From: a virus | Reading direction: 5' to 3' (one strand) | DNA length: 64,000 nt | IMG/VR virus record: IMGVR_UViG_3300038454_000106 | Location: 37,698-101,697 of that record | In this document: piece by piece, positions 22,220 to 64,000 of the stretch | Layout: every line of letters begins with the position of its first letter | How positions within the stretch are numbered: position 1 is the stretch's first letter | Made by a program: the position numbers and the translations under genes | Notes under the pieces: model-generated | What the model was told of the DNA's origin: nothing | Seen by the model: only the letters and a program-made list of their open reading frames with translations | The model's database searches: none

Positions 22220-22227
22220 CGCCTTGG

Positions 22228-22689: not shown

Positions 22690-22783
22690 GGCTTGTCTCC
22701 GAGCTTGCCAACGTCCTTGACGCAGCCCTTGTCGAGGATCTTGAACTTCCGACCGGAGTAGGTACGAACGCGCGTTGCCATGG

Positions 22784-23978: not shown

Positions 23979-23985
23979 CGGCAAG

Positions 23986-24011
23986 CCTTTCTCGTCCCCA
24001 ACGCAGGGACG
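23986..24011 (-). promoter_or_regulatory. hairpin-SD motif copy 6
   Basis: CGTCCC-TGCGTTG-GGGACG-AGAAAGG-N7-ATG. Confidence 0.8.
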
Positions 24012-24053
24012 TCTGTGGAACGACCGGAACCTAGCTCTAGTCGTCCCTGGCGG

Positions 24054-25064
24054 TCAATCCTCGTAGCGGTATCGGGCGAGGATGCCACCGTAGATCGCGT
24101 AGATCGCGAACCCGTCGGGCTCGACGCGGATCTGTGATGCCTCCGGAAAGTCGAGGTAGGACAGCGCACCCTTGCCGCCCTTCTCCTCGAGGTCGGGGCC
24201 CGAGAACGCCACGTGCACGGAGGTCACGCTCGCCACCACGCGCACGAGGTCGCACGGGCCGCGGCCGTTCTGAACGAGCCGGAGCTTGGTGCCGACCGGG
24301 ATCCGCTTGAGGCTCGCCAGCGACGTGACGAGGTACGCGGGCGCGCGATCGTCGCTGGCTTTCTTCGTGGCGCCGCACGACGCGCCGTTGCCGTCCCGAT
24401 GGTTGTAGCTCACGACCTCGACGTGGACGTGGCACTGCTCGTTTACCGGAGGGCGTTTGTCGGTGAGCAGGCATAGCACACGCTCGATCAGCGCGGCCGG
24501 TGCGCCAAGCTTGAGCATGGCCTGGTCTTCCGTCACGGCCAACTTGGCCGTCCACGCGTGGTCGCCCGTCGAGCCCTCGCCGTCGATCTGGAGATAGCTC
24601 GGATCTTTGCCATGGTGCGCGGTGCCAAGAAGCGTCGCGAGGCGCTTGGCGGTCACTAGCGTATTGGCGCGCAACGTCTCACGCTCGGACAGCGCGGAGA
24701 CGCACGCCTCGTACACGCGGAGATAGTCGGGAAGGAATCGAGCCTTGATGTCGGCCGCGATACGGCGACCGCCCTTATCGACCGAGGCATTGATGGCAGG
24801 CGGAGTCTCGTCGACGCCGTAGTCACGCGGCAGAGTGACGCCACGCGCCGAACGCGCCGGATCCTGCGGGTACGTGCCGCGCACGGCAACACGACGCTCG
24901 CGCACGAGGATCTCGAACCAAAGCGCCGCTCCGTCGCCACGCTTGATGTCGAAGGTGAACGGGTAATCGCTGGTCTCGAGTCGCCAGCCGAGCGCAGTGG
25001 CGATCTCCTGTGCGAGTTCCATCGCGAACGTGGACGTGATCTCGGGCTTGTCAGAATCAGACAT
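24054..25064 (-). CDS. hypothetical protein (probably two domains)
   Basis: ATG 25064 behind the motif; long ORF with GC3-rich codons. Confidence 0.7.
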   Translation of the reverse strand: MSDSDKPEITSTFAMELAQEIATALGWRLETSDYPFTFDIKRGDGAALWFEILVRERRVAVRGTYPQDPARSARGVTLPRDYGVDETPPAINASVDKGGRRIAADIKARFLPDYLRVYEACVSALSERETLRANTLVTAKRLATLLGTAHHGKDPSYLQIDGEGSTGDHAWTAKLAVTEDQAMLKLGAPAALIERVLCLLTDKRPPVNEQCHVHVEVVSYNHRDGNGASCGATKKASDDRAPAYLVTSLASLKRIPVGTKLRLVQNGRGPCDLVRVVASVTSVHVAFSGPDLEEKGGKGALSYLDFPEASQIRVEPDGFAIYAIYGGILARYRYED

Positions 25065-25072
25065 CGGACGTT

Positions 25073-25098
25073 TCTTTCTCGTCCCCAAGACAGGGACG
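25073..25098 (-). promoter_or_regulatory. hairpin-SD motif copy 7
   Basis: CGTCCC-TGTCTTG-GGGACG-AGAAAGA-N8-ATG. Confidence 0.8.
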
Positions 25099-25133
25099 CG
25101 GTGTGTGTTGGTTGAGACGACTATCGAACGCTG

Positions 25134-25310
25134 CTATTCATTGGGCATCAACGCGAGCGCGGCACGCTTGGCGTCGAGAGCTTGCTTCACCTCCTTGGCG
25201 TAGTCGCCGAGCCCGTCGCGCTCGGCACAGCGGAGGTCCGTCTCATGGTCGGCGATCTCCGCTTCGAGCAGGGCGCGAGCCGTATAGCGCATGCGAGGCG
25301 TGTAGGCCAT
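25134..25310 (-). CDS. hypothetical protein
   Basis: GGAG SD, 58 aa. Confidence 0.5.
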   Translation of the reverse strand: MAYTPRMRYTARALLEAEIADHETDLRCAERDGLGDYAKEVKQALDAKRAALALMPNE

Positions 25311-45338: not shown

Positions 45339-45817
45339 GTCTCTGGTCAACAGTCGGGGCCCTCGCCGGTGGCGTGGTCCTTGGCGTGCTCGGTGCCGCG
45401 GCATGGGAGCGCCGAGGCCAGCTCGCCGGACTCCCCGAGGACTGGTGGCGCAAGCGACGCGAGCCCAAGGAGCGGCTCTGCTACCGCACGAAGTCGGAAG
45501 CGCTCCAAGCCTTCCGAGATGCGAACCGGCACCAGATCGAGGATTGGGGCGGGCTCGACACGATAGCGAGCCCAGCCGAGTTTGATGCCATCAACGCTCG
45601 ATACGGGCTCAAGGGCTCACGTGCGGTGCGCACGCTGGCACAGGCGCTCTGGGCCGTGATGCCGGCACACGCACCGTTCTGCCTCGACGAGATCGACGTC
45701 GAGACGCTGAACGAGACGAGCCCGGGCCAGCATGGGACGGGCTTCGTGCTGCCGAGCTGGGCCTACGACCTCATCGCCGCGCGCGACGAGGCCGAGCACT
45801 ATGCGACCGCAGGCTAG
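45335..45817 (+). CDS. N-terminally membrane-anchored protein
   Basis: TM followed by GQLAG; GTGA coupling. Confidence 0.6.
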   Translation: MSLWSTVGALAGGVVLGVLGAAAWERRGQLAGLPEDWWRKRREPKERLCYRTKSEALQAFRDANRHQIEDWGGLDTIASPAEFDAINARYGLKGSRAVRTLAQALWAVMPAHAPFCLDEIDVETLNETSPGQHGTGFVLPSWAYDLIAARDEAEHYATAG

Positions 45818-47124
45818 TCAGCACAGGGCCCGAAGGAGCCCCCAAAGGCATCCGTGGCCGATGGCACGAGCAGTCGCTCGCCGTCACCTGCGACGTTGAC
45901 AACCCCGGCGGAACTCTGGAACGTGTGGCCACTTGGCGGCAGGTAGCGACTGAAGATGACCCGCTCGCCAGAGATGTCAGTGCTGAAGTCACCCACCACA
46001 GGGCCCGAGAGACTGTGATTGGTCAGCTTGACAGCGACGCCACCGGTAGATGCAACGCGGAACAGCTTGTATGCGCCCTCTCGGTCGCTCGAGAAGACAA
46101 TGCCCGAGTCGTCATTGAGCCATCTCGGGGCGTCCTCGAAGGAGTCGGCACCCAGGGTCAGATCAAGGGTATTCAGGCCGTTGATGTCCGTGGTCCAGAT
46201 GTCATTTTCACGGACGTAGGCAACACGGTAGATCCCGTGTGCGAAAGCTGGCGTACGTTCGGCAACCTCCTCCGTCCTCGTGATGTTCTGCGCAGGTCCA
46301 CCAAGGATGGAGATCCAGTACAGATCCGACGGCAACGAGATGGTGCCATCCTTGATGTTGCGGTGAACGAAGATGATGCCCCTGGAGTCCGGGGCCCACA
46401 CGTAGCCGGCATCATCGATCTCCAGCGCGGTGACGGCCCTTGCCACGGTACCGTCGGTGGTGCCGAACCAGAGTTCCTTGCCACGACGCCACAGGAGCTT
46501 GGTGCCGTCAGGCGACCAGCGCGGCCACGTATCCGCCAGCACGGGTCCGAGGACGTCCAGGGCATGGGTGAGGTTCTGGACCATCGACCCATCGGGGGTC
46601 ACCACGTAGATGTCCGAGGTGGTATTCGATAGCTCGCGGCTAGAGCCAAAGGCGATGAGATCGCCCTTGGGCGACCACGTTGCACTATCGATCGGATTGC
46701 CAGCGGCGATGCTGTACGCGTTGGAGCCGTCAACGTCGGAGATCCAGAGCGCACCGCCGAGCATGTACGCCATGCGGCAGGCCACTGCGGGAGGAGCGTC
46801 CGGCGTTCCGGGAGGTGCATCTGGGATATCGGCATCCGGCGTCGCTGGCGTGGCATCTGGAGGGAGCGCGGCATCGAGGTCCGCTGCGCTCGAGACGCAG
46901 ACGCCCGTGAGTGCTCCACCACTGTCATCGTAGACATAGCCCGAGTCGCACATGCTCTCGGGATAGGCGCAAGAATCCCCTCCGCTGGGAGCCGCCAGGC
47001 AAAGCCCGCTCGGGCGCAAGTTGCACTCGATGTCGGAGCTGCACGAGAACTGCCGGGCGCTCTGACTACAGCCACTGCAGCCGGCCATTACAACGAAGCA
47101 TCCAATCAAGATCAAGGCACGCAT
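45814..47124 (-). CDS. TolB-like (PD40) beta-propeller lipoprotein with N-terminal Cys-rich domain
   Basis: lipobox VMAGC; WSPKGDLIAF, PRWSPDG, WAPDSRGIIF, IVFSSDREG repeats; DA-P linker. Confidence 0.85.
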   Translation of the reverse strand: MRALILIGCFVVMAGCSGCSQSARQFSCSSDIECNLRPSGLCLAAPSGGDSCAYPESMCDSGYVYDDSGGALTGVCVSSAADLDAALPPDATPATPDADIPDAPPGTPDAPPAVACRMAYMLGGALWISDVDGSNAYSIAAGNPIDSATWSPKGDLIAFGSSRELSNTTSDIYVVTPDGSMVQNLTHALDVLGPVLADTWPRWSPDGTKLLWRRGKELWFGTTDGTVARAVTALEIDDAGYVWAPDSRGIIFVHRNIKDGTISLPSDLYWISILGGPAQNITRTEEVAERTPAFAHGIYRVAYVRENDIWTTDINGLNTLDLTLGADSFEDAPRWLNDDSGIVFSSDREGAYKLFRVASTGGVAVKLTNHSLSGPVVGDFSTDISGERVIFSRYLPPSGHTFQSSAGVVNVAGDGERLLVPSATDAFGGSFGPCAD

Positions 47125-47451: not shown

Positions 47452-48144
47452 TCACTCGACGTGGCAATCGTGCGAGCAGCCATCGCCGTCGCGGTTATTG
47501 CCATCATCGCATTGCTCGAACAGGCCCTCAGGGTGACCGTTGCCACAGACGTTGTTCTGTTGACAGAGAGCCGAGCAGCCGTTGCGGGTGTCGACGGCAT
47601 CACCATCGTCGCACTGCTCGGCGAGCTGCTCGACGTGGTTGTTGCCGCACACGTTGTTGAACTTGCAGGCGGTGCCGCAGCCGTTGCGGTCGTCATCACG
47701 GTTGCCGTCGTCGCAGTCCTCGATATCGGGACCTTGCTTGTCGACCATGCCATCGCCGCAGACGTTACGCTGGCAGTTCGGCGTGCAGTCCTTGTCGATG
47801 CCATTGCTGGCTCCGTCGTCGCAGGTCTCACCGGCGGCAACGTTGGTGATGCCGTCGCCGCATCGGACGAAGGTACAGTCAGCCATGAGTGCATCGGTCA
47901 CCGCCGCGTCAGGGAGCGCGTTGGATTCGACGCACACGTTGTCGAGTGGACCATCAATCGTCCAATGAAAGCCCGTGCTGCACGCGGTGTCGGGATAAGC
48001 GCACGTCCGACTCTCGTCCGGTGACGACCAGCAGTGGCCGTCGCCGGCCAGGTTGCACTCTCCGTCGGAGCTACAGTGGTACTCGGCCGACGAGGAACAA
48101 GCGGCCAGCAAGCTGGCAGCGATGGTGAGAGAGATATTCCTCAT
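47452..48144 (-). CDS. lipoprotein with Myxococcus cysteine-rich repeats
   Basis: LLAAC lipobox; four CG(D/N)G...E.CDDG.....GC...C repeats. Confidence 0.88.
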   Translation of the reverse strand: MRNISLTIAASLLAACSSSAEYHCSSDGECNLAGDGHCWSSPDESRTCAYPDTACSTGFHWTIDGPLDNVCVESNALPDAAVTDALMADCTFVRCGDGITNVAAGETCDDGASNGIDKDCTPNCQRNVCGDGMVDKQGPDIEDCDDGNRDDDRNGCGTACKFNNVCGNNHVEQLAEQCDDGDAVDTRNGCSALCQQNNVCGNGHPEGLFEQCDDGNNRDGDGCSHDCHVE

Positions 48145-48145
48145 G

Positions 48146-49807
48146 CTACATGACTCCATTGGGATCGATCTTCTCGGACTTGCGAGGCCGGCTTGACCTG
48201 CGCTTGGGCTTGGGCTTGTGCTCATCGTTCGCCGACGGAGCCGTGATGGCAGCCGCTGGAACGGGCTGGACCGTGAGCACAGGAATCGGAGGAGCTGGCG
48301 GAGGAGCTGGTGGGGGCGCTGGCGGAGGAGCTGGCGGGGGAGCCACCATGAGCGTGGGGACTGGAAGCATGAGAGGACGCTGCACCGCAACGCCCCCGAC
48401 GCCATAGTGGGTCACCGCAGCGATGGCCACGGCGCTGCTGCTCGCAGCGATAAGCCCCATGCCGACAAGACGGCCCCAATGGCGCTGTGCCCTGGATGTC
48501 GGCGCGATGACACCAGCAAAGCCGCCCATCGACGTGGAACCGGAGACGCCGCTCATCGACGAGGGACTCGTCGGTCCCGTGACGGCGCTGGCCATCACCG
48601 TACCGCCGTTCATCATCGTCGGCGTCTGGACCGGCGCAGGAGCCACCACCGGTGAGACGCCACCAGTCGGCATGGTCGCGTGAACGATGTCGCCTTCGTT
48701 CAGCTCGATCACCTTGCTCTCGCTCGGATCGGCGCCCCGAATGGCATCCAGTGGAGCAGACACGTCATGGATCGAGATCGGCACGCCTCCCGGTGGAAAG
48801 AAGGGTCGCACCAAAGCGGGCTTGAGCGTGGGCTCTAGGCCCAACTCGCGCCAGTGATGCATGAGGAGTGCAGGGCCATTCGGCGACGTGTGCGACAACG
48901 CGATCGCCACCTCGCGCATGTCCCTCATGCGATCGCCGGGCTCCCACGCCATCGCGTGGGCAAAGAGCGCATCCCAGTACAAGCTGACATCGGGCCGAAA
49001 CCTGGTCGCCGGCACGAACGGCCTACGTTTGGCCTCGTAGATCTGCATCTCGTTGCTCCCCTCGAAGGGGTATCGCCCGGTCAGCATGAGATAGAGCACA
49101 ACGCCAAGGCTGTACACATCTGTCCTGGCATCGACGTCACGGGAGTCCTGCACCTGCTCGGGCGACATGTAGTGTGGCGTGCCCATACACAGGCGCTGCA
49201 TCGTCTCGATGGCCGTCGGGAGCACGCATGGTGCAAGCGGCGACGTGCTCCCAGGTGCAGGCACCTTGGCAATGCCATAATCGAGTAGCTTCGCCACTTG
49301 CACACCATCGATATCGCAGATAAAGATATTGGAGGGCTTGACGTCGCGATGATAGATATTCTCCTTGTGGCCCTTGTAGAGCCCGCGGGCCACCTGGGTC
49401 CCGATCGCAATCACCTCCTCGACGGTAAATCGCAGCTTGATCTCTTGGAGCTTCTTGAGATCGTGGCCCGTCAAATACTCCATCACGATGAAGTGGCGGC
49501 CATCGGGGAGCTGTCCGATCTCGTAGATCGTCGTCGTGTGCCTGCCACCGACGCGTGATGCGGCGCGTGCCTCCGCGTAGAAGCGATTGACTTGCGCCTT
49601 CGCATCATCGCTCTTGCTCGGCGGCTGCGTGAGCACCTTCATGGCACGGCGCTCGTCGAGGTCAATATGGTGGACCTGATAGACCGTGCCCATGCCGCCA
49701 GCACCAATCATCTCTTTGACGACGTATCGGCCGACCTGCTGTCCTACTAGCAAATCGATCCTCCTGGTGTCGCCCTGCCTGCTGTCAATCGTGCCTGCGG
49801 TCGTCAT
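48146..49807 (-). CDS. membrane-bound Hanks-type Ser/Thr protein kinase
   Basis: GAGGMG, AMKVL, HRDVKPSN, DYG (for DFG), GTPHYMSPEQ, DVYSLG; TM and Pro-rich tail. Confidence 0.93.
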   Translation of the reverse strand: MTTAGTIDSRQGDTRRIDLLVGQQVGRYVVKEMIGAGGMGTVYQVHHIDLDERRAMKVLTQPPSKSDDAKAQVNRFYAEARAASRVGGRHTTTIYEIGQLPDGRHFIVMEYLTGHDLKKLQEIKLRFTVEEVIAIGTQVARGLYKGHKENIYHRDVKPSNIFICDIDGVQVAKLLDYGIAKVPAPGSTSPLAPCVLPTAIETMQRLCMGTPHYMSPEQVQDSRDVDARTDVYSLGVVLYLMLTGRYPFEGSNEMQIYEAKRRPFVPATRFRPDVSLYWDALFAHAMAWEPGDRMRDMREVAIALSHTSPNGPALLMHHWRELGLEPTLKPALVRPFFPPGGVPISIHDVSAPLDAIRGADPSESKVIELNEGDIVHATMPTGGVSPVVAPAPVQTPTMMNGGTVMASAVTGPTSPSSMSGVSGSTSMGGFAGVIAPTSRAQRHWGRLVGMGLIAASSSAVAIAAVTHYGVGGVAVQRPLMLPVPTLMVAPPPAPPPAPPPAPPPAPPIPVLTVQPVPAAAITAPSANDEHKPKPKRRSSRPRKSEKIDPNGVM

Positions 49808-51902: not shown

Positions 51903-52712
51903 CTAGAACCTGCCACGGACGGCGACGTGCGTCGGTCCGGCTTCGAGTTGCAGATCGGGTACGAGCACGAGCCGCACGGTCGCCGCGACGGCCACAGCGC
52001 CGGCACCGACCAGTGCAAGGGTGCCCATGACCGAGCGCGTGTCCGCTCGATCGAGGAGCTGGGCCTGCTCACGCTGTGAGCCCGCATCCGTGTCACGCAG
52101 ACTGCTAGCGCTCAGCTCGAGGCCAAGGCCAACGCCACCGAGCACGACGGCGCCCCCAGCGAGGGACCATCCAAGCGTGTCCTCGTACCAGCGTGGGCGC
52201 GTGGGCTCTCGCCGTCGTGCGCTCGTGAGCGTGGCATCGATGGTGGGATCGACAGGCTCCTGATCGGTCACGGGCGACACGACCGGTTTCTCCTCGGCGG
52301 GGGCGAGTGACGTCGGCGGGCGCGTAGCTGCCACGGTGGCCTTGTCGATCGAGGTCTGGCACGCAGCCACGAAGCCCTTGGCGAGGCCAACACGCTCGGC
52401 TGCCTTCGGGCGATCTTCGACGGCGGCGATGAACCGCCCATAGAGCCAGATCGCCTTGGGACAGTCCCCGGCCATGCGGTAGGCCTGCCCGAGGTTGTAG
52501 AGCCAGACCGCGAGGTCTGGTGCGGCCTGAAGCCCTGCCTCGAATTCGGCAATCGCCTCGTCCCACTTCTGGACGGCGTAGGCCGCACGCCCAGCGCGGA
52601 GATGCCGGATGCTCTCGGCATCCGTCGGCTCAGCGAGCGGGTCAACAGGTTCTGCAACAGCAACAGCAACGCCGCTCGTCAACACGAGCGACACGATGAC
52701 AACGCGCAACAT
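51903..52712 (-). CDS. tetratricopeptide repeat protein (myxobacterial type)
   Basis: signal peptide; AIAEFEAG...WLYNLGQAYRMAG.C.KAI.LY..F; RWYED.LGW plus hydrophobic C-terminus. Confidence 0.85.
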   Translation of the reverse strand: MLRVVIVSLVLTSGVAVAVAEPVDPLAEPTDAESIRHLRAGRAAYAVQKWDEAIAEFEAGLQAAPDLAVWLYNLGQAYRMAGDCPKAIWLYGRFIAAVEDRPKAAERVGLAKGFVAACQTSIDKATVAATRPPTSLAPAEEKPVVSPVTDQEPVDPTIDATLTSARRREPTRPRWYEDTLGWSLAGGAVVLGGVGLGLELSASSLRDTDAGSQREQAQLLDRADTRSVMGTLALVGAGAVAVAATVRLVLVPDLQLEAGPTHVAVRGRF

Positions 52713-53033: not shown

Positions 53034-53360
53034 TCAGCCGTAACGCTGCACGTGCTCGGCCATCGCGAGGTACCCGTCGAGCGTGGTCGAGTCCACGCTC
53101 CCGATCACCGAGATCGAACCGGGCCCCCTGCACAGGATCAGGAGCGTCGGCGTCGACGTGACGCCGAATCGATCGAGGAAGGCCTGGACGTCTGCGCGCT
53201 CGTCGTCGGCCTTGTAGATGCCAACGGGGATCTCCGGGTTCCGTCGCTGCAGTTTCTCAACGGCCCGACGGAAGCGTGGCTCAAACTCCTCGCACGCGCC
53301 GCACCCGTCAAGTACGACGAGCGCAACGAACACCTTGGCGTTGCTGAGATCCAGAGCCAT
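53034..53360 (-). CDS. thioredoxin-family protein
   Basis: CGAC active site, FGVTSTPTL cis-Pro loop. Confidence 0.8.
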   Translation of the reverse strand: MALDLSNAKVFVALVVLDGCGACEEFEPRFRRAVEKLQRRNPEIPVGIYKADDERADVQAFLDRFGVTSTPTLLILCRGPGSISVIGSVDSTTLDGYLAMAEHVQRYG

Positions 53361-53397: not shown

Positions 53398-54309
53398 CTA
53401 TGCGGCCTTCGCCCTCCACGTCGCCGTCGTCGGAGCTGGAAGCACGTCGACGTCGATCCTGGACGTGTCCTCGTCCTCGTCCTCGTCCTCCTCCTCCTCC
53501 TCGGCACCTGTGATCGCGTTGTAGCGAGGGCCGCGCTTGAGATGCAGGTACAGCGCGACGCCAGCGATGGCACCGAGCACACCGAGCCCGAGCAAGCTCC
53601 AGAAGTCCCACTTGCCAGCCATCGCCGTCGGACTGACGTCAACCTGGGGGATCAACTGCAGGCACTTGTCGAAGCACACCTCGTTGGTGTCCTTCACCGT
53701 GCACGAGGCCATGCACTTGTTGCGGGCCTCGTACATCCCGAGCGCAACTTGGGCCTTCTTGTCGATCTCGAGCATCATCCGCTTCTGCTCGCTCTTGGCC
53801 TCGATCGCGTTCGCGAACGCGACCACCGCCGTGAACCCAGCGGCGAAGCCAACACCAGCGACGACGAGGTAGATGATCAGCGGTGCGAGACCGAGCCCGC
53901 TCTTCTGAAAGTCGAAGGTGACGATCTGCGGGTCCATGTAGTTGGGCTCGCTCGTCGATACCGTGAGACTACCTGACGGCAACGGCTGCACCGCAAGGGA
54001 GCCCGCGAGCGGCATGGAGCAGTCGAGGAGTGCGGAGTCCTTGCCGAGCGTTGTCTTCCAGTTGAATAGCGTCGGGCTTGGCGGCAGTGCGGGCAGGCCT
54101 GTGACGCCTTGGGCTCGGAAGAACTCGAGCATCGCCTTCTGGCTCTCGTACACGGCGAGCGCGAGCAGGTTGTAGGTCTTGACGTCCTGGCACGTCGCGG
54201 CGCCTTGGGCGTAGAGGAGCGAGACACTGCGGGCCGCGCGGCGGACCGTGTTCCACGCGTTCTCAACGGCCGTGGTGACCTCCTCGGCGGTCTTCTGGGC
54301 GTCGATCAC
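53398..54309 (-). CDS. two-TM membrane protein with acidic tail, putative virion membrane protein
   Basis: GGGAG SD before GTG 54309; SGLG before the first TM; C..C...C...C cluster; poly-Glu/Asp. Confidence 0.7.
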   Translation of the reverse strand: MIDAQKTAEEVTTAVENAWNTVRRAARSVSLLYAQGAATCQDVKTYNLLALAVYESQKAMLEFFRAQGVTGLPALPPSPTLFNWKTTLGKDSALLDCSMPLAGSLAVQPLPSGSLTVSTSEPNYMDPQIVTFDFQKSGLGLAPLIIYLVVAGVGFAAGFTAVVAFANAIEAKSEQKRMMLEIDKKAQVALGMYEARNKCMASCTVKDTNEVCFDKCLQLIPQVDVSPTAMAGKWDFWSLLGLGVLGAIAGVALYLHLKRGPRYNAITGAEEEEEDEDEDEDTSRIDVDVLPAPTTATWRAKAA

Positions 54310-54390: not shown

Positions 54391-55311
54391 ATGGCCAACA
54401 CAGTTATTTACAACGTCGTTCCCTCGATCGAAGAGGCGCGCCAGCGTGGGCAATCGGTCTGGGATCTCTACCTAGAAGGCTTCTCGTCGGGCGCCAGCGG
54501 GAACGTCTCGATCTACCCAGAAGATGGCCGCCAGGCACTGACGTCGGTCTATGCCATCACGATCGGGAACCGCTCGCATCTCGACCGGTGCTTCGTGCTC
54601 TGGGATCCGCAGGCCACGCTCGCGCCCATCGACTCCGACGATGGCGTGCCGGACTTCATGCGACGTGTGACGACGACCGCCCCATTGATCTTCCCGCAGA
54701 CCGGCAATGTGGGCCCGACGTCGATCGTCGTCGCAACGCCACCTAGGCTGGGCGCCATTCGTGTCGCGGGCGATCCCGCAGACTTCATCCGCAACTTTGC
54801 GACGCAGTTGAACCGGATCGACAAGGACGTCGTCTTTCGGCCAGTCAGCTACATCCCTGTTGGCGGCGCAGAGGTTGTGATCGACTGGGACGTTGCGCCG
54901 AATATTACAATCGCCCCAGTCCTGCATCTTCAGTTCTATCTGCAGCCACCGAACCAGGTGCCCTATGGGCGTGCGCCCTATCGGCAGTGGAATGGGCGCG
55001 AGATCAATCTCGCTGCCGAGACCTTGATCCTCATGTGCGCGATCCACGGACGGCGTCTGGTTCGCGTGGAGGTGACGACGGACGATGCCCTAGTGACTGA
55101 CGCGACCGTGCGAGTTGGCGCGTTCAGCCCGATCGCGGAGGACCCGGTGGCCTTCATCCCGCGAGAATTCACCATTGCCACCGGCGCCATCGTCTCGAGT
55201 GCGCCCGCGAGTATCCTCATCACGAATCCGGTGGCAGACTGGCTTACCGTCTATGCGACGTCGACCAGCGGTGTCGGCAACGTGAACGTGAAGGTTTACG
55301 CCATCGACTAG
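54391..55311 (+). CDS. beta-rich putative structural (spike/vertex) protein
   Basis: TACCTT 7 nt before ATG; alternating hydrophobic strands, C-terminal VNVKVYAID. Confidence 0.6.
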   Translation: MANTVIYNVVPSIEEARQRGQSVWDLYLEGFSSGASGNVSIYPEDGRQALTSVYAITIGNRSHLDRCFVLWDPQATLAPIDSDDGVPDFMRRVTTTAPLIFPQTGNVGPTSIVVATPPRLGAIRVAGDPADFIRNFATQLNRIDKDVVFRPVSYIPVGGAEVVIDWDVAPNITIAPVLHLQFYLQPPNQVPYGRAPYRQWNGREINLAAETLILMCAIHGRRLVRVEVTTDDALVTDATVRVGAFSPIAEDPVAFIPREFTIATGAIVSSAPASILITNPVADWLTVYATSTSGVGNVNVKVYAID

Positions 55312-56066
55312 CTCCGGGCCCAACGATGGTGAGCTGCGATGCCCGTGGCGAGTAGTGCGATGGCACCAAGGACCGCCAGCCCGGTCCGTGGCCAGTCAAT
55401 GGGCACCGTCGGTAGCGGGGCTGGCTTGGGCTCGCCAGGCGTGGTCGATGGCTGGCCGCTGGCAACTGCATCGGCGCGCGACAGGAGCCATTGGCCCTGC
55501 TCGCGCACGATCGCATCATCGGCGAGGATCGCGGCCTGGGCGAGCGCGCGGACTCGTGGGTCATAGGCGTGGAGGATGCGATCGGGCAGCCCCAACAGCA
55601 GCGCGATCATGGCGCCAGCTTGGATCTGCGGCGTGGCACCCGCCTCGGCGAGATCCATGACGGCCTCCTCGATCCCAGTGAGGTCCGAGAAGGTCGCGGC
55701 GTAGAGCCAGCCAACGAGCAGGTTGGGGTCCTTCTCGACGCGCAGGGCCCAGCGGAGGACGTGCAAGTCCTCACCGAACAGGTGCCGAGCTGTGCCGGGC
55801 CGCTCGCTGGTCTCGAGGAGCGCGGTGAGTCCCTTGAGGCCTACGGTCCGCTCATGGGTCGACTCGAGGAGGTACGGTACCGTCACCAGCGGCACGCCAG
55901 GGAGGTGGACGAGGCAGCCGGTCGGCTCGTCCTGGTAGTAGGCCAGGAACGCATGGGCGACGATCGTGGCTTGCGCGAGCGTGTAGGGGGGCTCGCGCAA
56001 GCTGCCCGACATGCCGAGAGGAAGCTGGTCCATCCACGCCTGAGTGCGTGTGCAGGCGTCGCCCAT
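55308..56066 (-). CDS. C-terminally anchored membrane protein
   Basis: Pro linker plus TM; downstream of the capsid-like genes. Confidence 0.65.
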   Translation of the reverse strand: MGDACTRTQAWMDQLPLGMSGSLREPPYTLAQATIVAHAFLAYYQDEPTGCLVHLPGVPLVTVPYLLESTHERTVGLKGLTALLETSERPGTARHLFGEDLHVLRWALRVEKDPNLLVGWLYAATFSDLTGIEEAVMDLAEAGATPQIQAGAMIALLLGLPDRILHAYDPRVRALAQAAILADDAIVREQGQWLLSRADAVASGQPSTTPGEPKPAPLPTVPIDWPRTGLAVLGAIALLATGIAAHHRWARS

Positions 56067-56069: not shown

Positions 56070-56387
56070 TCATGACTCCGCGAATTGCAGCGGAAAGGCC
56101 TTGCTCGCGGCGACGGAGACTGAGCCACCCGCACCCACGCCAGCGCAGTACAGGACGTCATTCGGCTCGAGGACGAAGACATCCGATCGGTCCGCCGGCA
56201 GGAAGTAGGAGTCAAGCACTGACTGCGACGAGATCAGTGCGTTGGCCGAGTACGAGATGAACACGCCACCAGGTCCATTGTTGCGGACCATGGCGCGCAC
56301 AGGTCCGCGGACCGTGGCACTGGCGAGCCGCGAAGGGCTCGCCGTGCCGACGGCATTGACGGTGACCGTCTTGGTGTTGGCCGCCAT
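56070..56387 (-). CDS. putative penton or minor capsid protein (single jelly roll)
   Basis: 105 aa all-beta pattern (MVRNNG...VFIS...YFL....DVFVL....VLY), directly after the MCP candidates; GAGGTG SD. Confidence 0.5.
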   Translation of the reverse strand: MAANTKTVTVNAVGTASPSRLASATVRGPVRAMVRNNGPGGVFISYSANALISSQSVLDSYFLPADRSDVFVLEPNDVLYCAGVGAGGSVSVAASKAFPLQFAES

Positions 56388-56396
56388 GGCGTCACC

Positions 56397-56900
56397 TCAC
56401 CGTGAGTCGCTGGGCGCCGCGATCTGGATCAGGAAGCCCTGCCAGTTCAGCTCGATCTTGAGACTCGTCACCGTGGCCACGAGGCTTGCGGGCTCGGCCA
56501 GGGTGGTGACTGCGATCTGGAAGCCACCCGAGTTGGGCAGCGTGTAGGGCTCAGCCAGCTCCCACGTGCGCTCCGACGTACCCTTGACCATGTCACGGAT
56601 CAACGTCGGCGCCTTCGTGAACTTCTGGTCCGTGCGGAAGTCGAGGATGTCGAGCCGCACGAGCGCCTGCAGCGTGTCCTGATCGGGCTGCGTGCCGAGC
56701 AGGAGCTGGTTGTTGTCCAGGGCAGCCACGCGGGGCAGCAGCCGATGGATCTCGAACGGCTTGTCTACCTGGTTGGTAAACACGACATCCGGGAACGTGA
56801 CGCCATTCTGGGAGAAGCCAATCACCAGCTCGGCCGGCATGTTGTACGGAAACCGAGCCGTGATCTTCTGCCCCGCGAAGGTGTCGGGCAATCTCCCCAT
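56397..56900 (-). CDS. putative small major capsid protein (single jelly roll)
   Basis: 167 aa; beta pattern DKPFEIHRL, VRLDILD, LAEPYTLP..GGFQIAV, IELNWQG. Confidence 0.55.
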   Translation of the reverse strand: MGRLPDTFAGQKITARFPYNMPAELVIGFSQNGVTFPDVVFTNQVDKPFEIHRLLPRVAALDNNQLLLGTQPDQDTLQALVRLDILDFRTDQKFTKAPTLIRDMVKGTSERTWELAEPYTLPNSGGFQIAVTTLAEPASLVATVTSLKIELNWQGFLIQIAAPSDSR

Positions 56901-57061
56901 AAATTACACCGCCTCGACCCCCCGTGATCATTCTTGAGGGCCGCGAAGGGTTGTTGTGGTGGTCTCTCTCGAGACCGATATCAAGGGGAGGCCGAACCCT
57001 CCCAATGGGACGTCCGATCGCATTGTCCGCTGTGCGGGCGACGCGTCCGGGATCTGGATCC

Positions 57062-57769
57062 TCAGACCACGGGTCGCTTGATCAACCCTACCTTCTCGAC
57101 CTTGAAGTCCATGAACGTCAGGGCGACGCCGCCATCCGAGGCGGCCTGGCTGATCACCAGCGCTGCCTCTGGGAACATCGCCATCTTGTAGCCCAGGTTC
57201 TCTTGCTCGAGGATCGGCAGCACCATCGACCAGCGGTCACGCGGGCTCGGCACACCGTTCTGCGCCAGCTCGAAGTCGCCAGTGGTGGCGAACACGTTCC
57301 AGCCGTGGCCCTGGGGGTAGTTCTGCATGACCCCCTGCGAGTAGATCTTCTCGCGGTACTCGTACTGCAGGAAGGTCACGCGATCGACGCTGAACAGCGT
57401 CTGCAGACGCACCGGGTTCGACAGCGCGCCTGCACCGTCGGCGAGCACCGGCTGGGTCTGTCCGGTCGGCGGACGCGTGACGCGGACCGCCTTGCACGCG
57501 ATCGTGTAGACCAGCATCGAGAACGCCTGCGGCAGTCCGTTCGGACCCGGGCGTGGGATGTTGGTATCGACACGCGTCATGGTGCGCGTGCCACCGGGGA
57601 TCTGCTGCGAGCGGCCGGCGGAGAACGCCTCGACGGGGGTTCCCTGACCGTTGGAGAGCTGGACCGTGCCGTAGTAGCGGTCATCGATCCAGTCCGCCAG
57701 CTCGATGACGGTTCCGTCCGCGAGGGCGAGAGTTGAGGTTCCTGGGGCTACACCGACAGTTCCAACCAC
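57062..57769 (-). CDS. putative large major capsid protein (single jelly roll)
   Basis: 235 aa; YYGTV..F....Q....T..DTN...G.LP..F.M.V..I N-terminus and LPI...N..Y...KVE.VGLIKRPV C-terminus, as recalled for vertical single-jelly-roll MCPs; AGGAG SD. Confidence 0.6.
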   Translation of the reverse strand: MVGTVGVAPGTSTLALADGTVIELADWIDDRYYGTVQLSNGQGTPVEAFSAGRSQQIPGGTRTMTRVDTNIPRPGPNGLPQAFSMLVYTIACKAVRVTRPPTGQTQPVLADGAGALSNPVRLQTLFSVDRVTFLQYEYREKIYSQGVMQNYPQGHGWNVFATTGDFELAQNGVPSPRDRWSMVLPILEQENLGYKMAMFPEAALVISQAASDGGVALTFMDFKVEKVGLIKRPVV

Positions 57770-57836
57770 GGGTCACTCCTGAAGGAGGTTGCAAGGAGGG
57801 CTCGTGAAACCCTCGGATGGCGCCGTCGGCAGTGGC

Positions 57837-58418
57837 TCAGTGCGCGCTGAAGAGGTTGGCACCGTAGGCGGAAGCGAGACCATGAGGAGCCTGCAGCGTC
57901 GGGCCGGCGAGCATCTGGGCCTGCATGCCCAGCGCGCTGCCACCCCCGAGCAGGTTGATCGGCGGACCGAGCGCAGCCGACTGCGCGACGCCAGCGACAC
58001 CGGGCACCGTGCCGTAGGAGGATGGTGTCGGGATCACGGTCGCGACGCCGAGCCCGCCGTTGAGATAGTTGACCTGCGGAAGGCCAAGCTGATTCACGAC
58101 GGGCACGCCGAACGCGCCCATGAACGAGCCCTTGGTGAGCTTGTTCTCGATGGCACCGACGCCAACGGCGAGAAGTCCACCGAGCACAGCGCCCGCGCCC
58201 GCACCATGCGTGTCCGGTCCCATCGCGTAGAGCACGCCTCCCGAAAGCGCCGCCAGACCAAGTCCGATGTAGAGCGCTTTGTCCGCCACAGAGGGGATGA
58301 ACTTGGATCCGATGTAGCCGGCTGCTGAGGCACCACCACCGATGGCCAGACCCCACAGGGGATTCAGACCGACCGTGCGGCCGAAGTCATCGATACCGAG
58401 CAGGTTGACGTGCGCCAT
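57837..58418 (-). CDS. three-TM membrane protein upstream of the MCP
   Basis: three hydrophobic helices; repeated LLG/AFG/QLG/GLG/ALG/LAG motifs; GAGGAG SD. Confidence 0.7.
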   Translation of the reverse strand: MAHVNLLGIDDFGRTVGLNPLWGLAIGGGASAAGYIGSKFIPSVADKALYIGLGLAALSGGVLYAMGPDTHGAGAGAVLGGLLAVGVGAIENKLTKGSFMGAFGVPVVNQLGLPQVNYLNGGLGVATVIPTPSSYGTVPGVAGVAQSAALGPPINLLGGGSALGMQAQMLAGPTLQAPHGLASAYGANLFSAH

Positions 58419-58447: not shown

Positions 58448-58618
58448 CTAGCAGCGACCCTCGAACTTGCGACCGTTCCTGTGATCAGGAGACTTTGGCA
58501 CCACACACACCTTCACGCGTTGACGAGTACGGGGATTGAAGGTGCACCAGCACGTGCCGATCGGTTTCTCATCTGGTTGATAGGCGGAGAGCGACTTGTC
58601 GCGTCGCCGACGCGGCAT
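58448..58618 (-). CDS. small basic Cys-rich protein
   Basis: MPRRRR...CWC...C...C; TGATG coupling. Confidence 0.55.
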   Translation of the reverse strand: MPRRRRDKSLSAYQPDEKPIGTCWCTFNPRTRQRVKVCVVPKSPDHRNGRKFEGRC

Positions 58619-59193
58619 CAAGAACCTCGAGACCACGTCCAGCCCGGGGACTGCACGGAGGTGAACGGGTACATATCGGCGGCTTGTGCGCGAGCACCGA
58701 CCATGCCTCCGATGCGATCGTCGATGAGGTGACGGGAAAGCGCCACCGGAGCATAGGCGATCGGAGTCATGGCCGCCGCTGCCGACGCTGCTGGATTGAG
58801 CACCGGCGGGAACACCTTGGCACCTTGGGTGACCGCCCGCATCGAGATCGCGAGGGCGGCTTGCTCTTGGCGATTGAACTGCGGTGCATTGGCCGTCGGG
58901 ATCGCCATCGAGGTCTGGTCACCATAGAGACCCGACATTCCGCTCCGGCGCAGGGCGGCCTTCATGCGCTGCTTGGCGGCCCAGAGCTTGATGCGCTCGA
59001 TGACGCCGACAGGGCGATCGCCAAACCCGCCACTCTGCAGCGCGTCCTGAACCCGAGGTTGCCAGATCGCCGTGAATCGCGCAGCGACCTCCTGCGCATT
59101 CATCACGGGCTGGTATCCCGGAATGGCCGTGAGGACACCCGTATACATGACCGCGTCGGGTCGAATCAGGTGCAGCTCCTCACCATGGCGCAT
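58618..59193 (-). CDS. hypothetical protein, putative virion component
   Basis: TAGAGT 7 nt before ATG 59193; GGFG, GMSGLYG motifs. Confidence 0.65.
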   Translation of the reverse strand: MRHGEELHLIRPDAVMYTGVLTAIPGYQPVMNAQEVAARFTAIWQPRVQDALQSGGFGDRPVGVIERIKLWAAKQRMKAALRRSGMSGLYGDQTSMAIPTANAPQFNRQEQAALAISMRAVTQGAKVFPPVLNPAASAAAAMTPIAYAPVALSRHLIDDRIGGMVGARAQAADMYPFTSVQSPGWTWSRGS

Positions 59194-59305
59194 GGCGATC
59201 ACTCTAGGAGTGTCTGCTCAGTAGTTCAACACTCGTCGTGAGTACCGTTGCCGTCCCGAGCAAGCTAGTGATGCAACGGCTGTCAAAGCATGCCAAGCTT
59301 GCTCA

Positions 59306-60223: not shown

Positions 60224-60478
60224 TCACTTCTTTGGCTTGCCGTAGCCTTCCCAGAACGCGACGGCGGGCGTGATGATCGGAAATACGTAGCCGAGCACAA
60301 ACCATCCGACGCCCCACCCGACGGACCCGTTGTTGCGATGGTAACCGTGGTAGCCGGACACGAGCCCGGAGACGGTACCGACGACACCCCAGAAGCTCAG
60401 GCCAGGGATCGTCAAGCCGAGCTGGGAGTCGCCGACCATTCGGGAACTAGGACGTGGATAAGGCATCATGTGCGGCAT
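60224..60478 (-). CDS. small two-TM membrane protein
   Basis: YHGYHRNN.SVGW.VGW...G..FP....A...GYGK. Confidence 0.65.
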   Translation of the reverse strand: MPHMMPYPRPSSRMVGDSQLGLTIPGLSFWGVVGTVSGLVSGYHGYHRNNGSVGWGVGWFVLGYVFPIITPAVAFWEGYGKPKK

Positions 60479-60487: not shown

Positions 60488-61168
60488 TCAGGCATCGAAG
60501 TCAGCGTGCTTGGCGTAGGGGGCCTCGAGCCCGAACCGTCGGCCCGGGAGAGTCGAGTCGAGGGCGACCCACTTTGTCGGTGCGTACTTCGGCAAACCCG
60601 CCATCACGTAGATATGGGACCAGTCCCCTCGCTTTGAGGTCGCCGTGACTCGAAGCCGGGGCTCGATGCCGTTCAAGGAGAGTAGCGTGGCCAGCAGAAT
60701 CGACTGATCATCGCAGTCCCCTGCGCCCATGGACCACGTGTTCCAGCCCGTCTGATAGTAGTCGATGGAATCCTTGGGCCCGTTGCGGCCATGCTTGATC
60801 GGCGCGACGTCGCCGGAGTAGCGGACCCGAGCCTTGACCGCGTTGTAGATGGCTTTCGCCTCGCACAGCCCGTCTCGCTCGGGACACGCCCGAACAGCAT
60901 CGGCGGCGATCGACTTCATCCTCGGATCTGATACTGACTTGAAGACCTGATCTTGGATGATCCCGATCCGCTCCTGGATCGACATTCGGTGAGTGCGGAA
61001 GAGTTGAGTCATGCCGTTGCCAGCATGCGTCACCTGCACCGGATTCGGACGCGGCATTGGACCAGGCGCGTAGTAGCCGAGTGGGGATCGTCCCTTCCAT
61101 GCCCACGCCAACGCCCCTAGCGCGGCAATACCGCCCACGCCAAGGAGCACCTTGGTCGAGGTCTTCAC
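60488..61168 (-). CDS. membrane-anchored transglutaminase-like (Cys-His-Asp) enzyme, candidate maturation protease
   Basis: N-terminal TM; IYN.VK..VRY..D, GDCDD, HIY, WVALD. Confidence 0.85.
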   Translation of the reverse strand: MKTSTKVLLGVGGIAALGALAWAWKGRSPLGYYAPGPMPRPNPVQVTHAGNGMTQLFRTHRMSIQERIGIIQDQVFKSVSDPRMKSIAADAVRACPERDGLCEAKAIYNAVKARVRYSGDVAPIKHGRNGPKDSIDYYQTGWNTWSMGAGDCDDQSILLATLLSLNGIEPRLRVTATSKRGDWSHIYVMAGLPKYAPTKWVALDSTLPGRRFGLEAPYAKHADFDA

Positions 61169-61255
61169 GAGTCCACGCTAGCACGAGACGTCAACGCAAC
61201 TCGAGCAAACGTGTTGACTAGCGGAGCGCTGGTGTTCTATGCGACCCTCTCCGGC

Positions 61256-61846
61256 ATGCTCCAGGCATTCATGATCCCGTCCCCGCGCATGCTTGGATGG
61301 CATGGTGCTGGGCTTGGCGCCGCCAATGCCAACGTCAAGGCGATGCAGCAGGCGCTCGCGGCCTATGCAACGGCCACCAACTACCCGCTCGCGAACCCGG
61401 GCGCGATTGACGGCTTCATCGGCCCACGGACTCGTGATGCCGTCCTCGCGGTCTTGCCTCGTCTGCCCAAGCTGCCAAGTGCGGTCAAGTCACTCCTGCA
61501 GTATGGAGCCATGGTTGCGGTGATCCCCGAGGTGGCGAAGCATCTCGACGACCTGATCGTGTCCTACGCCTCCGAGATCACCACAGCGCTCAAGCTGCTC
61601 CAGGTAGTGCAGACGCCAGCGACGCCAGGGACACCCACGGGTGCAGGCACGACGGCGACGCCTGTCGTCCCTGCTACTCCGGCCCCTGGGGCAAGCTTGC
61701 CGGCCGTCCCGACGCCAGCCGCAGGCCTACCAGCGACCGGCGCTCTGCCGGCCCCGGCCTGGTACAAGACAGGTCCTGGGATGGCCGCGCTCGGCGTCGG
61801 AGCCACTGCCGTCATGGCAAGCGCGATCCTCCTGGCGACGAGGTGA
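61256..61846 (+). CDS. membrane-anchored peptidoglycan-binding-domain protein
   Basis: VKAMQQAL...NPGAIDGFIGPRTRDAV; Pro/Thr/Ala linker; C-terminal TM; N-terminal MLG...GLG. Confidence 0.7.
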   Translation: MLQAFMIPSPRMLGWHGAGLGAANANVKAMQQALAAYATATNYPLANPGAIDGFIGPRTRDAVLAVLPRLPKLPSAVKSLLQYGAMVAVIPEVAKHLDDLIVSYASEITTALKLLQVVQTPATPGTPTGAGTTATPVVPATPAPGASLPAVPTPAAGLPATGALPAPAWYKTGPGMAALGVGATAVMASAILLATR

Positions 61847-61849: not shown

Positions 61850-62155
61850 GTGCTGGGCTATGACTGCTTTCCGGGCGTCGCGGGTGGCTGTTCCCAACGA
61901 GGGCTCGGCGACACCAAGGACGAGATCAACAATTGGCTCAAGACCGTCCCTGTGGTTGGCTCGGCGCTGCAGTCCGGGCTCGACAAGCTCGTCACCTACA
62001 TCAAGTCGGAAGCCGAGACCGGCGCCAAGCAAGCCATCCCCCAGATCCGGAGTGAGGTCCGCGACGAGGTGAAGCCCTATATCATCGCAGCGGTGGGGCT
62101 GTCCGCCGTTGCAGCCGCCATCGGGATCACTGCCCTGGTGCGAAGGAAGGGCTGA
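61850..62155 (+). CDS. small membrane protein
   Basis: MLG...RGLG leader; C-terminal TM and RRK. Confidence 0.65.
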   Translation: MLGYDCFPGVAGGCSQRGLGDTKDEINNWLKTVPVVGSALQSGLDKLVTYIKSEAETGAKQAIPQIRSEVRDEVKPYIIAAVGLSAVAAAIGITALVRRKG

Positions 62156-62829: not shown

Positions 62830-63567
62830 ATGGTCATCCCCAAGCGAGTAGGGGTCGCGCCAGGCACGACGACTCTGCATCTGGGCGCCCCACCGAGCAA
62901 AGGGGAGAGCTGCATCTACTACGGTCCCGTGAACACGATGGGCTCCTTCGGGCCTCTCACCTCGTATTCGAGGAACGTGTCTCCGGCCATGCCATCGGCG
63001 GCCAGTGCACCCCTGGGACCCGGCAATCCATACGGCTCGGAAGCGGAATTCAAGGGTGGACTCGGCTACATCATCACGCCGACGGGCTACACGCCAGGCC
63101 GGGTGCCCTGGGAGGTCGTAGGGCTCTACACCGACTCGAAGGGCCGCCGCGGCTGCGATCCGCAACACAACGAGCGTGGTGAAGCTGGCTTCTACTACGA
63201 TACCCAGCTCGGTGGGCTCGGTCGGGGCATGCCCACGGATGCACAGATGTCGGTCCAGCATGGCTGGACGCCGACGTTTGGGCCCGGGTACATGCCCGTC
63301 GTCGACCAGATGGTACCGACGGCCGATGGGAGGCTTCTGCCGTTGCCATGGGTCCCACCGGACGGATGGAATCCGGCTGGCCGATCGGGGCCCGCCTCGG
63401 CTTGGGGCCGCAAGCCATCGGGTCTTGGCGAGTTGACCGAGGAGGAGATCCGGGCCAACGCCGACCGCATGTACAAGCTCGCGCTGTACGGTACCGTGGG
63501 CGGGCTTGCGCTCGGGGCCATCACCCTGATCGTGACGCTCGCCCGAAAGTCGTCGTCGTCGTCTTGA
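62830..63567 (+). CDS. Gly/Pro-rich membrane-anchored protein
   Basis: TACCGT 7 nt before ATG; GGLG x2 and SGLG; C-terminal TM. Confidence 0.7.
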   Translation: MVIPKRVGVAPGTTTLHLGAPPSKGESCIYYGPVNTMGSFGPLTSYSRNVSPAMPSAASAPLGPGNPYGSEAEFKGGLGYIITPTGYTPGRVPWEVVGLYTDSKGRRGCDPQHNERGEAGFYYDTQLGGLGRGMPTDAQMSVQHGWTPTFGPGYMPVVDQMVPTADGRLLPLPWVPPDGWNPAGRSGPASAWGRKPSGLGELTEEEIRANADRMYKLALYGTVGGLALGAITLIVTLARKSSSSS

Positions 63568-63579: not shown

Positions 63580-64000
63580 ATGAGCATGTCCGCCAACGTC
63601 GCAGAGGCGATCAAGATCCTTCGCACCGCCGAGACCGAGCTGACGAGCGCGGTAAACCTCGGCTACACGACCGCAGTCGTGATCCCGGGTCCCGTCCCTG
63701 CGCCCGAGGAGACGACCATCATCGCGCTACGGGCGACAGGGATCCCGGGTCCGATCGCGATCAAGGCCGTCCTCATGAACGGCGACAAGTACATGGCTTG
63801 GCGGGCAGCATGGGAGGTGCTCATGGCCTTTGCCGGCTGGTGGGGCCGGCAGGCGCGTTGGCCGCTTGGCGACGGTGAGCGTGCCAAGAAAGATCCGACG
63901 ACGGCGGCAGGTATGCCACCGCTGGGCGCTGGGCTCGCGGCGCTGTCCGCGACCCTGACAGCGATCACAGCACCGACCTGGAAGCCGTCCGTACGGCTCG
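63580..64000 (+). CDS. hypothetical protein (runs off the window end)
   Basis: GAGG SD, ATG 63580, open to the end (MSMSANVAEAIKILRTAETEL...). Confidence 0.6.
   Translation, partial: MSMSANVAEAIKILRTAETELTSAVNLGYTTAVVIPGPVPAPEETTIIALRATGIPGPIAIKAVLMNGDKYMAWRAAWEVLMAFAGWWGRQARWPLGDGERAKKDPTTAAGMPPLGAGLAALSATLTAITAPTWKPSVRL

Follow-up and report, generated by a model that had tools for sequence, protein, structure and literature searches.

The stretch of DNA considered here (the window, 64,000 nucleotides in its whole length) comprises bases 37,698-101,697 of the 101,697-bp IMG/VR virus record IMGVR_UViG_3300038454_000106, and features are located in window coordinates unless they are marked as contig positions. 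Its GC content ranges from 60 to 71%. Four co-oriented genes, all of them on the minus strand, occupy positions 56070 to 58418, where codon-bias gene calling and the list of open reading frames (ORFs) place them in agreement with an earlier reading of this DNA, made from its letters alone (the sequence-only reading). These genes encode a Gly/Ala-rich membrane protein of 193 amino acids (aa) (57837..58418), a 235-aa protein with a GTG start (57062..57769), a 167-aa protein (56397..56900), and a conserved protein of 105 aa (56070..56387). The 235-aa and 167-aa proteins are the candidates for the large and the small major coat protein, respectively, of a tailless virus, and the 193-aa gene lies just upstream of theirs. 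GC content at third codon positions (GC3) is 0.78-0.88 for the 235-aa, 167-aa, and 105-aa genes.

Across the whole record, 139 genes were called by codon bias, and the 134 called proteins of at least 60 aa were compared with the Pfam and PHROGs libraries, 30 of them singly and 104 in bulk; for the latter, the best 25 families per library were considered, the others having E values above 3e-5 (PHROGs) or 2.7e-4 (Pfam). None of the four proteins matched any family in either library. A hydropathy scan found no hydrophobic segment in the 235-aa or the 167-aa protein, and therefore no signal peptide or membrane anchor is evident in either. The 193-aa protein, which had been read as having three transmembrane (TM) segments, contains two clear hydrophobic stretches (residues ~47-68 and 70-95), whereas the third (20-40) is weaker and only perhaps crosses the membrane. 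In the 161 bp that separate the 235-aa gene from the 167-aa gene is a perfect 6-bp inverted repeat (ggtctc gaga gagacc; 56961-56976, minus strand), which may be an RNA stability or attenuation element setting the ratio of the two products. A scan for promoters and terminators in the structural block gave nothing above shuffled controls.

The 235-aa protein belongs to a large family, represented by 446 database clusters at E<=1e-3. The 120 of these clusters that were listed are 59-100% identical to it and 220-255 aa long (mostly 234-239 aa), and all are annotated as 'hypothetical'; among the matches listed, homologues are found on contigs of up to 179 kb. The 167-aa protein is represented by 119 clusters at the 50% level. 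Pattern scans provided 24 related loci, 18 from IMG/VR (on contigs of 39-221 kb) and six from metagenome-assembled genomes (MAGs). When all the proteins of the genome were compared with these loci by tblastn, the order of the block proved to be kept in at least 20 of them: transglutaminase-like enzyme, 71-aa TM protein, 194-aa protein, 193-aa TM protein, 235-aa protein, 167-aa protein, 105-aa protein, (306-aa protein), 303-aa TM protein, and thioredoxin. The 167-aa gene adjoins the 235-aa gene in 20 of the 24 loci, the position of the 193-aa gene upstream of the coat candidates is kept in 18 (28-37% identity), and the 105-aa gene lies 3' of the 167-aa gene in 15 (31-44% identity). Given these cluster counts and this recurring order, sequence comparison indicates that the gene block is not a product of chance. 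A tblastn search with the 235-aa protein against 50,697 phage records gave zero matches. In one locus (L024, ~10784-11350), a 187-aa tandem duplication of the 105-aa domain replaces the 105-aa gene.

Two of the relatives are large genomes with terminal repeats: G002 has 137,914 bp, a 123-bp terminal repeat, and a CheckV completeness of 100%, and G003 has 123,913 bp and a 103-bp terminal repeat. The core common to these two and the present genome consists of 23 genes, among which the 235-aa protein is the most conserved (59-68% identity), with 39-40% for PolA and no more than 53% for all other proteins. The sole large core protein for which no role has been assigned is a 722-aa protein (contig 1103-3271, minus strand; 25-26% identity to G002 and G003), made up of a small N-terminal domain, proline-rich linkers, a long charged coiled coil, and an acidic tail, which could be a scaffold or an internal protein. 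As this is the only large core protein left unexplained, there is no room in the core for a hidden set of terminase, portal, capsid, and tail genes. Accessory gene content varies widely around the 23-gene core; thus, G002 and G003 carry rIIA/rIIB-like genes, a thymidylate synthase, a nucleotide-sugar epimerase, and HNH endonucleases, which are absent from the present genome.

Regarding the structure of the coat candidates, which the sequence-only reading had described as beta-rich, both are predicted to be single jelly rolls, their best full-length matches being the coat proteins of SH1, HHIV-2, and HCIV-1, and of Sulfolobus polyhedral virus 1 (SPV1). The AlphaFold2 model of the 167-aa protein, built from 76 sequences, is a compact beta sandwich (pLDDT 95.7, pTM 0.88). 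In VIA-align it superimposes on SH1 6qt9_g, HHIV-2 6h82_E, and HCIV-1 6h9c_K, each with Z 7.4, from end to end over 127 residues at a root mean square deviation (rmsd) of 3.5-3.6 Å; these chains, of 167-175 residues, are presumably the small coat protein. The same model scores Z 7.5-7.9 against the C-terminal jelly roll of the EhV-201 and PBCV-1 coats, Z 7.3 over 139 aa against SPV1 6OJ0, and Z 5.5-6.7 against the coats of ASFV, FLiP, PRD1, P23-77 (VP17), and STIV. The model of the 235-aa protein (46 sequences; pLDDT 71, pTM 0.69) forms a single jelly roll in which two loops are poorly modelled. It matches SPV1 6oj0_A (Z 6.2, rmsd 4.5, 143 aa) and SH1 6qt9_h (Z 6.0, rmsd 3.6, 134 aa), followed by a nanovirus coat and then P23-77 VP17 (Z 5.2). 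Its Foldseek list consists almost entirely of viral jelly-roll coats, yet with E>=0.009. No longer, fused form of the 235-aa protein was found among its homologues, which is weak evidence.

The genes that define tailed phages were sought over the entire record, including the 37.7 kb upstream of the window. The sequence-only reading had noticed no terminase, portal, HK97, or tail gene within the window, and the observation extends to the whole genome: profiles for terminase, portal, and HK97 capsid detect nothing among the 134 proteins, and neither tail tube, nor sheath, nor tape measure has a match. Six-frame searches were likewise negative for Terminase_6N in the present genome, for TerL_ATPase in four relatives and one MAG chromosome, and for Phage_capsid in the present genome and four relatives. 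The family phrog_2 was also tried as a terminase probe, and it proved uninformative, as it matched 13 of 14 control genomes. The tailed-phage-like exception is a pair of pectate-lyase beta-helix proteins of 710 and 742 aa, described as 'tailspike-like' in the Pfam/PHROGs comparison and encoded upstream of the window (contig 20815-25178; L002:2815-7178). In three other loci (L011, L018, and L023), pectate-lyase genes follow the coat genes downstream by no more than a few kb, and these proteins are therefore probably host-binding spikes. A conserved 193-aa beta-rich protein (L002:2226-2807) precedes the two pectate-lyase proteins.

An FtsK/HerA/A32 packaging ATPase is a hallmark of the assemblage formed by PRD1 and the sphaerolipoviruses. 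The sequence-only reading had stated that this enzyme is not visible in the window, which holds, and had looked to the rest of the contig for it; the remainder of the genome and four relatives have now been searched, and it was not found there either, although a very divergent ATPase may escape such profiles. The FtsK_SpoIIIE six-frame search gave nothing in the present genome and nothing over the cut-off in four relatives. Only four proteins of the genome contain a Walker-A motif, namely Sak4, the deoxynucleoside monophosphate (dNMP) kinase, a 103-aa ORF, and a conserved 554-aa protein of no known family with a GxxGSGK[ST] P-loop (contig 11841-13505, minus strand). In each of the three genomes, the gene for the latter is placed among those of the SNF2 helicase, the nuclease, and Sak4. 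Matches of the 554-aa protein to PDB and Pfam do not extend beyond its Walker-A region (RFC, AAA), and in G003 the FtsK profile aligns with no more than the P-loop stretch of the homologue (E 0.006). There are homologues with inteins or homing endonucleases, and a Prim-Pol domain is present in a distant one (29% identity). Taking into account the position in the replication block, the matches limited to the P-loop, the Prim-Pol homologue, and the inteins, a packaging role of the 554-aa protein was set aside as the less likely reading; its sequence relationships suggest that it is probably a replicative primase-helicase of superfamily 3 (SF3) type, representing a new family of these viruses. 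In the closed Gemmatimonadota MAG chromosome CP070815.1 (G005), the coat block (~3.715 Mb) and a 554-aa homologue (2,247,882-2,249,354) are 1.46 Mb apart, so that the chromosome holds either two elements or an integrated copy that has been rearranged or degraded.

Concerning the form of the genome, IMG/VR labels the record ends as 'linear', and CheckV gives a completeness of 95%. The last ORF of the record (63580..64000, plus strand) runs off the 3' end and re-enters contig bases 1-515 in frame and free of stops. The joined, end-spanning protein has 312 aa and consists of two similar halves, which share a W..AW, WPLG.GE, DP, ATL, WK.P pattern, each with a hydrophobic stretch at its end. In G002, the counterparts of the genes flanking the ends (those of a 245-aa membrane protein and of the 722-aa protein) also adjoin each other. 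Because an ORF continues in frame across the record ends and the same neighbours are found in G002, the 101,697-bp record reads as a complete genome, circular or circularly permuted, despite its IMG/VR label. The sequence-only reading had expected a virus of at least 64 kb, much larger than known sphaerolipovirus-like viruses, and 101.7 kb bears this out. No tRNA genes were found in the genome.

The block extends on both sides of the four genes. Upstream of the 193-aa gene is the gene of a conserved 194-aa protein (58618..59202, minus strand), found upstream of the membrane-protein gene in 11 loci and without family match in Pfam or PHROGs, followed by those of a 71-aa single-pass membrane protein (60224..60439, minus strand; TM segment at residue 43; 13 loci, 38-54% identity) and of a 226-aa membrane-anchored cysteine enzyme of transglutaminase fold (60488..61168, minus strand; Pfam Transglut_core E 6.4e-8), which is present in 21 of the 24 loci. 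Beyond it, on the plus strand, are genes for three membrane proteins anchored near their C-termini, of 204 aa (61232-61846), 101 aa (61850-62155), and 245 aa (62830-63567); their homologues flank the block in 4-9 loci, and that of 245 aa is a core gene.

On the other side lie a 252-aa protein with a C-terminal anchor (55308..56066, minus strand; TM segment at residue 227), which has no tblastn match in the related loci and is specific to the present genome among the sequences searched, and a conserved, beta-rich 306-aa protein without Pfam or PHROGs family match (54391..55311, plus strand). Homologues of the latter (23-33% identity) are encoded 3' of the 105-aa gene and on the coat-gene strand in L004, L011, L019, L022, G002, and G003. 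Thus, the 306-aa gene is opposite to the coat strand here and on the same strand in all relatives seen, with the genome-specific 252-aa gene alongside, an arrangement that looks like a local inversion or insertion. An apparent hhalign match (98%) between the 105-aa and 306-aa families was discarded as an artefact of read-through past a stop codon in L006. The block continues with a 303-aa protein with two TM segments (at 136 and 235) and an acidic tail (53398..54309, minus strand), found downstream of the coat genes in seven loci, and ends with a 108-aa thioredoxin-like protein (53034..53360, minus strand; Pfam Thioredoxin E 4e-5, Thioredoxin_2 E 1.5e-5; 14 loci). As for the small TM proteins, of which about 20 had been counted across the window, a simple hydropathy scan comes close to that figure: it assigns TM segments to 27 proteins of the genome, of which 17 are encoded in the window, 12 of these 17 being no longer than 250 aa. 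Most of those in the window are small, C-terminally anchored, and clustered around the coat-candidate genes.

The transglutaminase-like enzyme provides the link to a cultured virus. The tailless membrane phage SSIP-1 has a particle of ~100 nm with T=49 symmetry and an internal membrane, and two coat protein types that are possibly single jelly rolls (PMC6356626, PMC4958249, PMC6260650). Its circular genome of 43.8 kb (JN880423) has 13 annotated structural proteins, and one of them, gp34, is a homologue of the 226-aa enzyme: the profile of the 226-aa family detects it with E 3.1e-20 in hmmsearch, and hhalign gives a probability of 98.4% over 148 columns. None of the other proteins of the present genome is significantly similar to SSIP-1 proteins. 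As the transglutaminase domain is widespread, the homology to gp34 is a link and not proof of common virion descent. The best SSIP-1 match of the 167-aa profile is gp47, with a non-significant E of 0.03 and an hhalign probability of 0.6%; in BFVD, I1ZBI0, an entry whose length of 256 aa is also that of gp47 and which may be gp47 itself, matches the 167-aa model with E 3.4e-4 and TM 0.52. The putative resemblance to gp47 is a lead rather than a result. Like the present genome, SSIP-1 is a bacterial virus with circular double-stranded DNA (dsDNA; for our genome, circularity is deduced as described above) and a cluster of small structural and membrane-protein genes. In contrast to it, the present genome is 2.3 times larger, with relatives reaching 138 kb or more, and encodes its own PolA-based replication block and recombinases.

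The sequence-only reading had taken the virus for a larger relative of P23-77 and SH1; by sequence, the closest cultured relative is SSIP-1, via gp34 only. The resemblance to these viruses of the Halopanivirales (Sphaerolipoviridae, Simuloviridae, and Matsushitaviridae, with SH1, HHIV-2, HCIV-1, and P23-77) lies in organisation and predicted fold. They likewise have adjacent genes for a small and a larger single jelly-roll protein, with chains of ~170 and ~230 aa in the solved structures versus 167 and 235 aa here, many membrane-protein genes around the coat genes, and no tailed-phage genes. In P23-77, the small coat gene precedes the large one, the reverse of the present block. In contrast to the Halopanivirales, no FtsK/HerA/A32-type ATPase was detected beside the coat genes or elsewhere in the present genome, which measures 101.7 kb versus 16-31 kb, and the environment and host differ. 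The proposed sphaerolipovirus kinship is a matter of predicted fold, at middling scores (Z 6-7.4), and there is no sequence or profile signal to VP4/VP7 or VP16/VP17; with no detected ATPase and no sequence similarity, membership of this order is not supported.

Two other groups deserve comparison. SPV1 (Portogloboviridae, 6OJ0) heads the structural matches of the 235-aa model (Z 6.2) and ranks among the best of the 167-aa model (Z 7.3), with scores that tie with many unrelated jelly rolls and with no sequence similarity; its hosts are hyperthermophilic archaea and its genome measures ~20 kb, versus a bacterial virus of 101.7 kb here. SPV1, too, is not known to have a recognisable packaging ATPase. 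The PRD1-type phages (Tectiviridae, Corticoviridae, and Autolykiviridae) are tailless, with an internal membrane containing small virus proteins and with spikes at the vertices. Their penton is a small single jelly roll of ~100-130 aa, which serves as the model for the role proposed below for the 105-aa protein. They differ from the present genome in having one double jelly-roll coat, where two single jelly rolls are modelled here, an FtsK/HerA-type ATPase, and genomes of 10-20 kb.

Taken as a whole, we consider it probable that these genes form the centre of the block with which an uncultured, large, tailless bacterial dsDNA virus, having two jelly-roll coats and many membrane proteins, builds its virion. 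The best explanation is a virus that works like the Halopanivirales and SSIP-1 at two to three times the published genome size. The sequence-only reading had named two findings that would refute it, namely predicted folds other than jelly rolls, or an HK97 capsid, portal, and terminase in the rest of the contig, and the analysis yielded neither. It is proposed that the 235-aa and 167-aa proteins would be two upright single jelly-roll coats tiling an icosahedral shell, as in SH1, P23-77, and SSIP-1, and that this shell would cover an internal lipid membrane bearing the numerous small proteins, mostly tail-anchored, whose genes surround those of the coat. By analogy with the PRD1-type phages, the 105-aa protein may be the vertex (penton) protein, and the 306-aa protein may be a vertex or spike protein; together with the two pectate-lyase proteins, they would form the vertices and the host-binding spikes. 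The gp34-like enzyme of transglutaminase fold and the thioredoxin could be processing or entry factors associated with the virion. Replication would be carried out by the virus's own PolA, the probable SF3-type primase-helicase, the SNF2 helicase, Sak4, and the PD-(D/E)XK nuclease, and the genome carries ParB together with serine and tyrosine recombinases. The virus is probably temperate.

Several points weigh against this proposal. The whole analysis was carried out in silico, and the virus is known here from genes and models. The FtsK/HerA/A32-type ATPase that such a virus would be expected to encode was not detected in the whole genome or in the relatives checked. The model of the 235-aa protein is moderately confident, 45 residues having a pLDDT below 50 (the N-terminus and the loops 154-162 and 171-183). 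Every structural score is below Z 8, 'middling' by VIA-align's own scale, and therefore the fold is supported and the family is not. Jelly rolls also occur in tailed-phage cement proteins, Ena fibres, nucleoplasmin, and enzymes, and the best PDB match of the 167-aa model in Foldseek is the jelly-roll cement protein KHP40 (E 1.6e-3). Profiles of the 235-aa and 167-aa families found no coat protein at E<=10 among all PDB sequences, and profile-profile comparison gave no homology between the two families. As to the scans, matches weaker than ~E 3e-5 would fall outside the best 25 families for the 104 proteins compared in bulk, and in the two relatives, also scanned in bulk with the best 25 families, single-member matches weaker than ~E 1e-35 would lie outside these.

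That KHP40 match, to a trimeric protein and accompanied by KHP30 and Pam1, raises the alternative that the element is indeed a virus in which the 235-aa and 167-aa proteins act as cement, vertex, spike-base, or membrane-associated components, the shell being built from another protein (for instance the 306-aa protein as a compact double jelly roll, conserved as it is in the block), from an unknown fold, or as a non-icosahedral particle. Fold scores do not separate coats from other jelly rolls, and the nearest Atlas clusters having a Pfam family correspond to the PM2 coat domains P2_N/P2_C with scores of just 0.76-0.77. However, it is from HK97 capsids that cement proteins are known, and nothing of the HK97 type could be detected here; the 235-aa protein exceeds all others in conservation by a wide margin, whereas the 306-aa protein shows only its 23-33% identity between relatives; and the end-to-end matches of the 167-aa protein are small coat proteins of the same size. 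We regard this arrangement as unlikely.

A comparably small chance is given to the element being a non-viral plasmid or integrative element, whose block would build a surface fibre, a secreted structure, or a jelly-roll protein cage. Its cargo has a plasmid-like side (ParB, two recombinases, a transposase, a Ser/Thr kinase, an acyl-CoA dehydrogenase, and HigA-type genes), Ena fibre subunits, which are jelly rolls, appear among the fold matches, no packaging motor was detected, and the 'virus' label of IMG/VR is automatic. Against this, no conjugation, relaxase, or secretion genes are present among the Pfam, PHROG, and NCBIfam matches listed, and the hydropathy scan reveals no evident signal peptide or membrane anchor in either coat candidate. 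Moreover, the element combines a phage-type PolA/Sak4/SNF2/nuclease block and depolymerase-type spikes with a homologue of SSIP-1 gp34, whose place in the virion is proven; direct terminal repeats are found in relatives of the element, which vary little in size.

Finally, a tailed phage of the Caudoviricetes, with capsid, portal, terminase, and tail too divergent for profiles and jelly rolls used for decoration, is very unlikely: it could invoke the automatic Uroviricota labels of the nearest Atlas clusters, the two 'tailspike-like' pectate-lyase proteins, and, in the relatives, rIIA/rIIB-like genes and PHROG 'virion structural protein' matches, but those labels rest on replication genes, the large terminase subunit is normally detectable by profiles and appears in neither the called proteins nor the six-frame searches of this genome and the relatives checked, and the 23 core genes leave only the 722-aa coiled-coil protein unexplained.

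The remaining gene content completes the picture of the element. In addition to the replication and recombination proteins detected with Pfam and PHROGs (PolA, Sak4, the SNF2 helicase, and the PD-(D/E)XK nuclease), matches were obtained for a Dam methylase, the dNMP kinase, ParB, a serine integrase, a tyrosine integrase, a transposase, helix-turn-helix regulators, a Ser/Thr kinase, an acyl-CoA dehydrogenase, a GDSL lipase, and a 1,270-aa DUF4157 protein. Host-like cargo is found beside the structural block, consisting of a PD40 beta-propeller protein (45814-46773), an 18-Cys DUF4215/myxo-repeat protein (47452-47937), a membrane-anchored Ser/Thr kinase (48146-49753), and a TPR membrane protein (51903-52712). 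The assignment of the virus to a host in the Myxococcota, made in the sequence-only reading, can be kept only as a hint, based on this one protein with the DUF4215/TIGR02232 'myxo' Cys-repeat and on one relative binned with Polyangiales. Other relatives are binned with Actinomycetes, Gemmatimonadota, Tessaracoccus, Alphaproteobacteria, and even an archaeon, and deducing the host from MAG-binned relatives was rejected because all of them are equally distant from the present genome.

Among the tailless membrane-containing phages described, genome sizes run from 10 to 44 kb, and bacterial viruses with large genomes are assumed to be tailed. To our knowledge, a membrane-lined shell made of two small jelly rolls has so far been described only for viruses of up to 44 kb, and no published description of tailless bacterial viruses of ~100 kb was found in the literature. 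It is tentatively suggested, at somewhat less than an even chance, that the present genome belongs to an undescribed and widespread tailless membrane-containing lineage, with several hundred metagenomic relatives, a distant link to SSIP-1, two-jelly-roll capsids, and neither a terminase nor an FtsK/HerA motor. Since the 235-aa protein is so conserved, its gene could be used as a marker to find these viruses and to look for a culturable host. If this proposal is true, one has to ask how a shell lacking any recognisable motor is filled with ~100 kb of DNA, as packaging without a terminase or an FtsK/HerA-type motor is not known from bacterial dsDNA viruses as large as these. Capsids of the single jelly-roll design would then span a size range two to three times as wide, and the share of the virosphere that is non-tailed would have been undercounted, such viruses of 100-140 kb being now automatically labelled as Caudoviricetes in IMG/VR.

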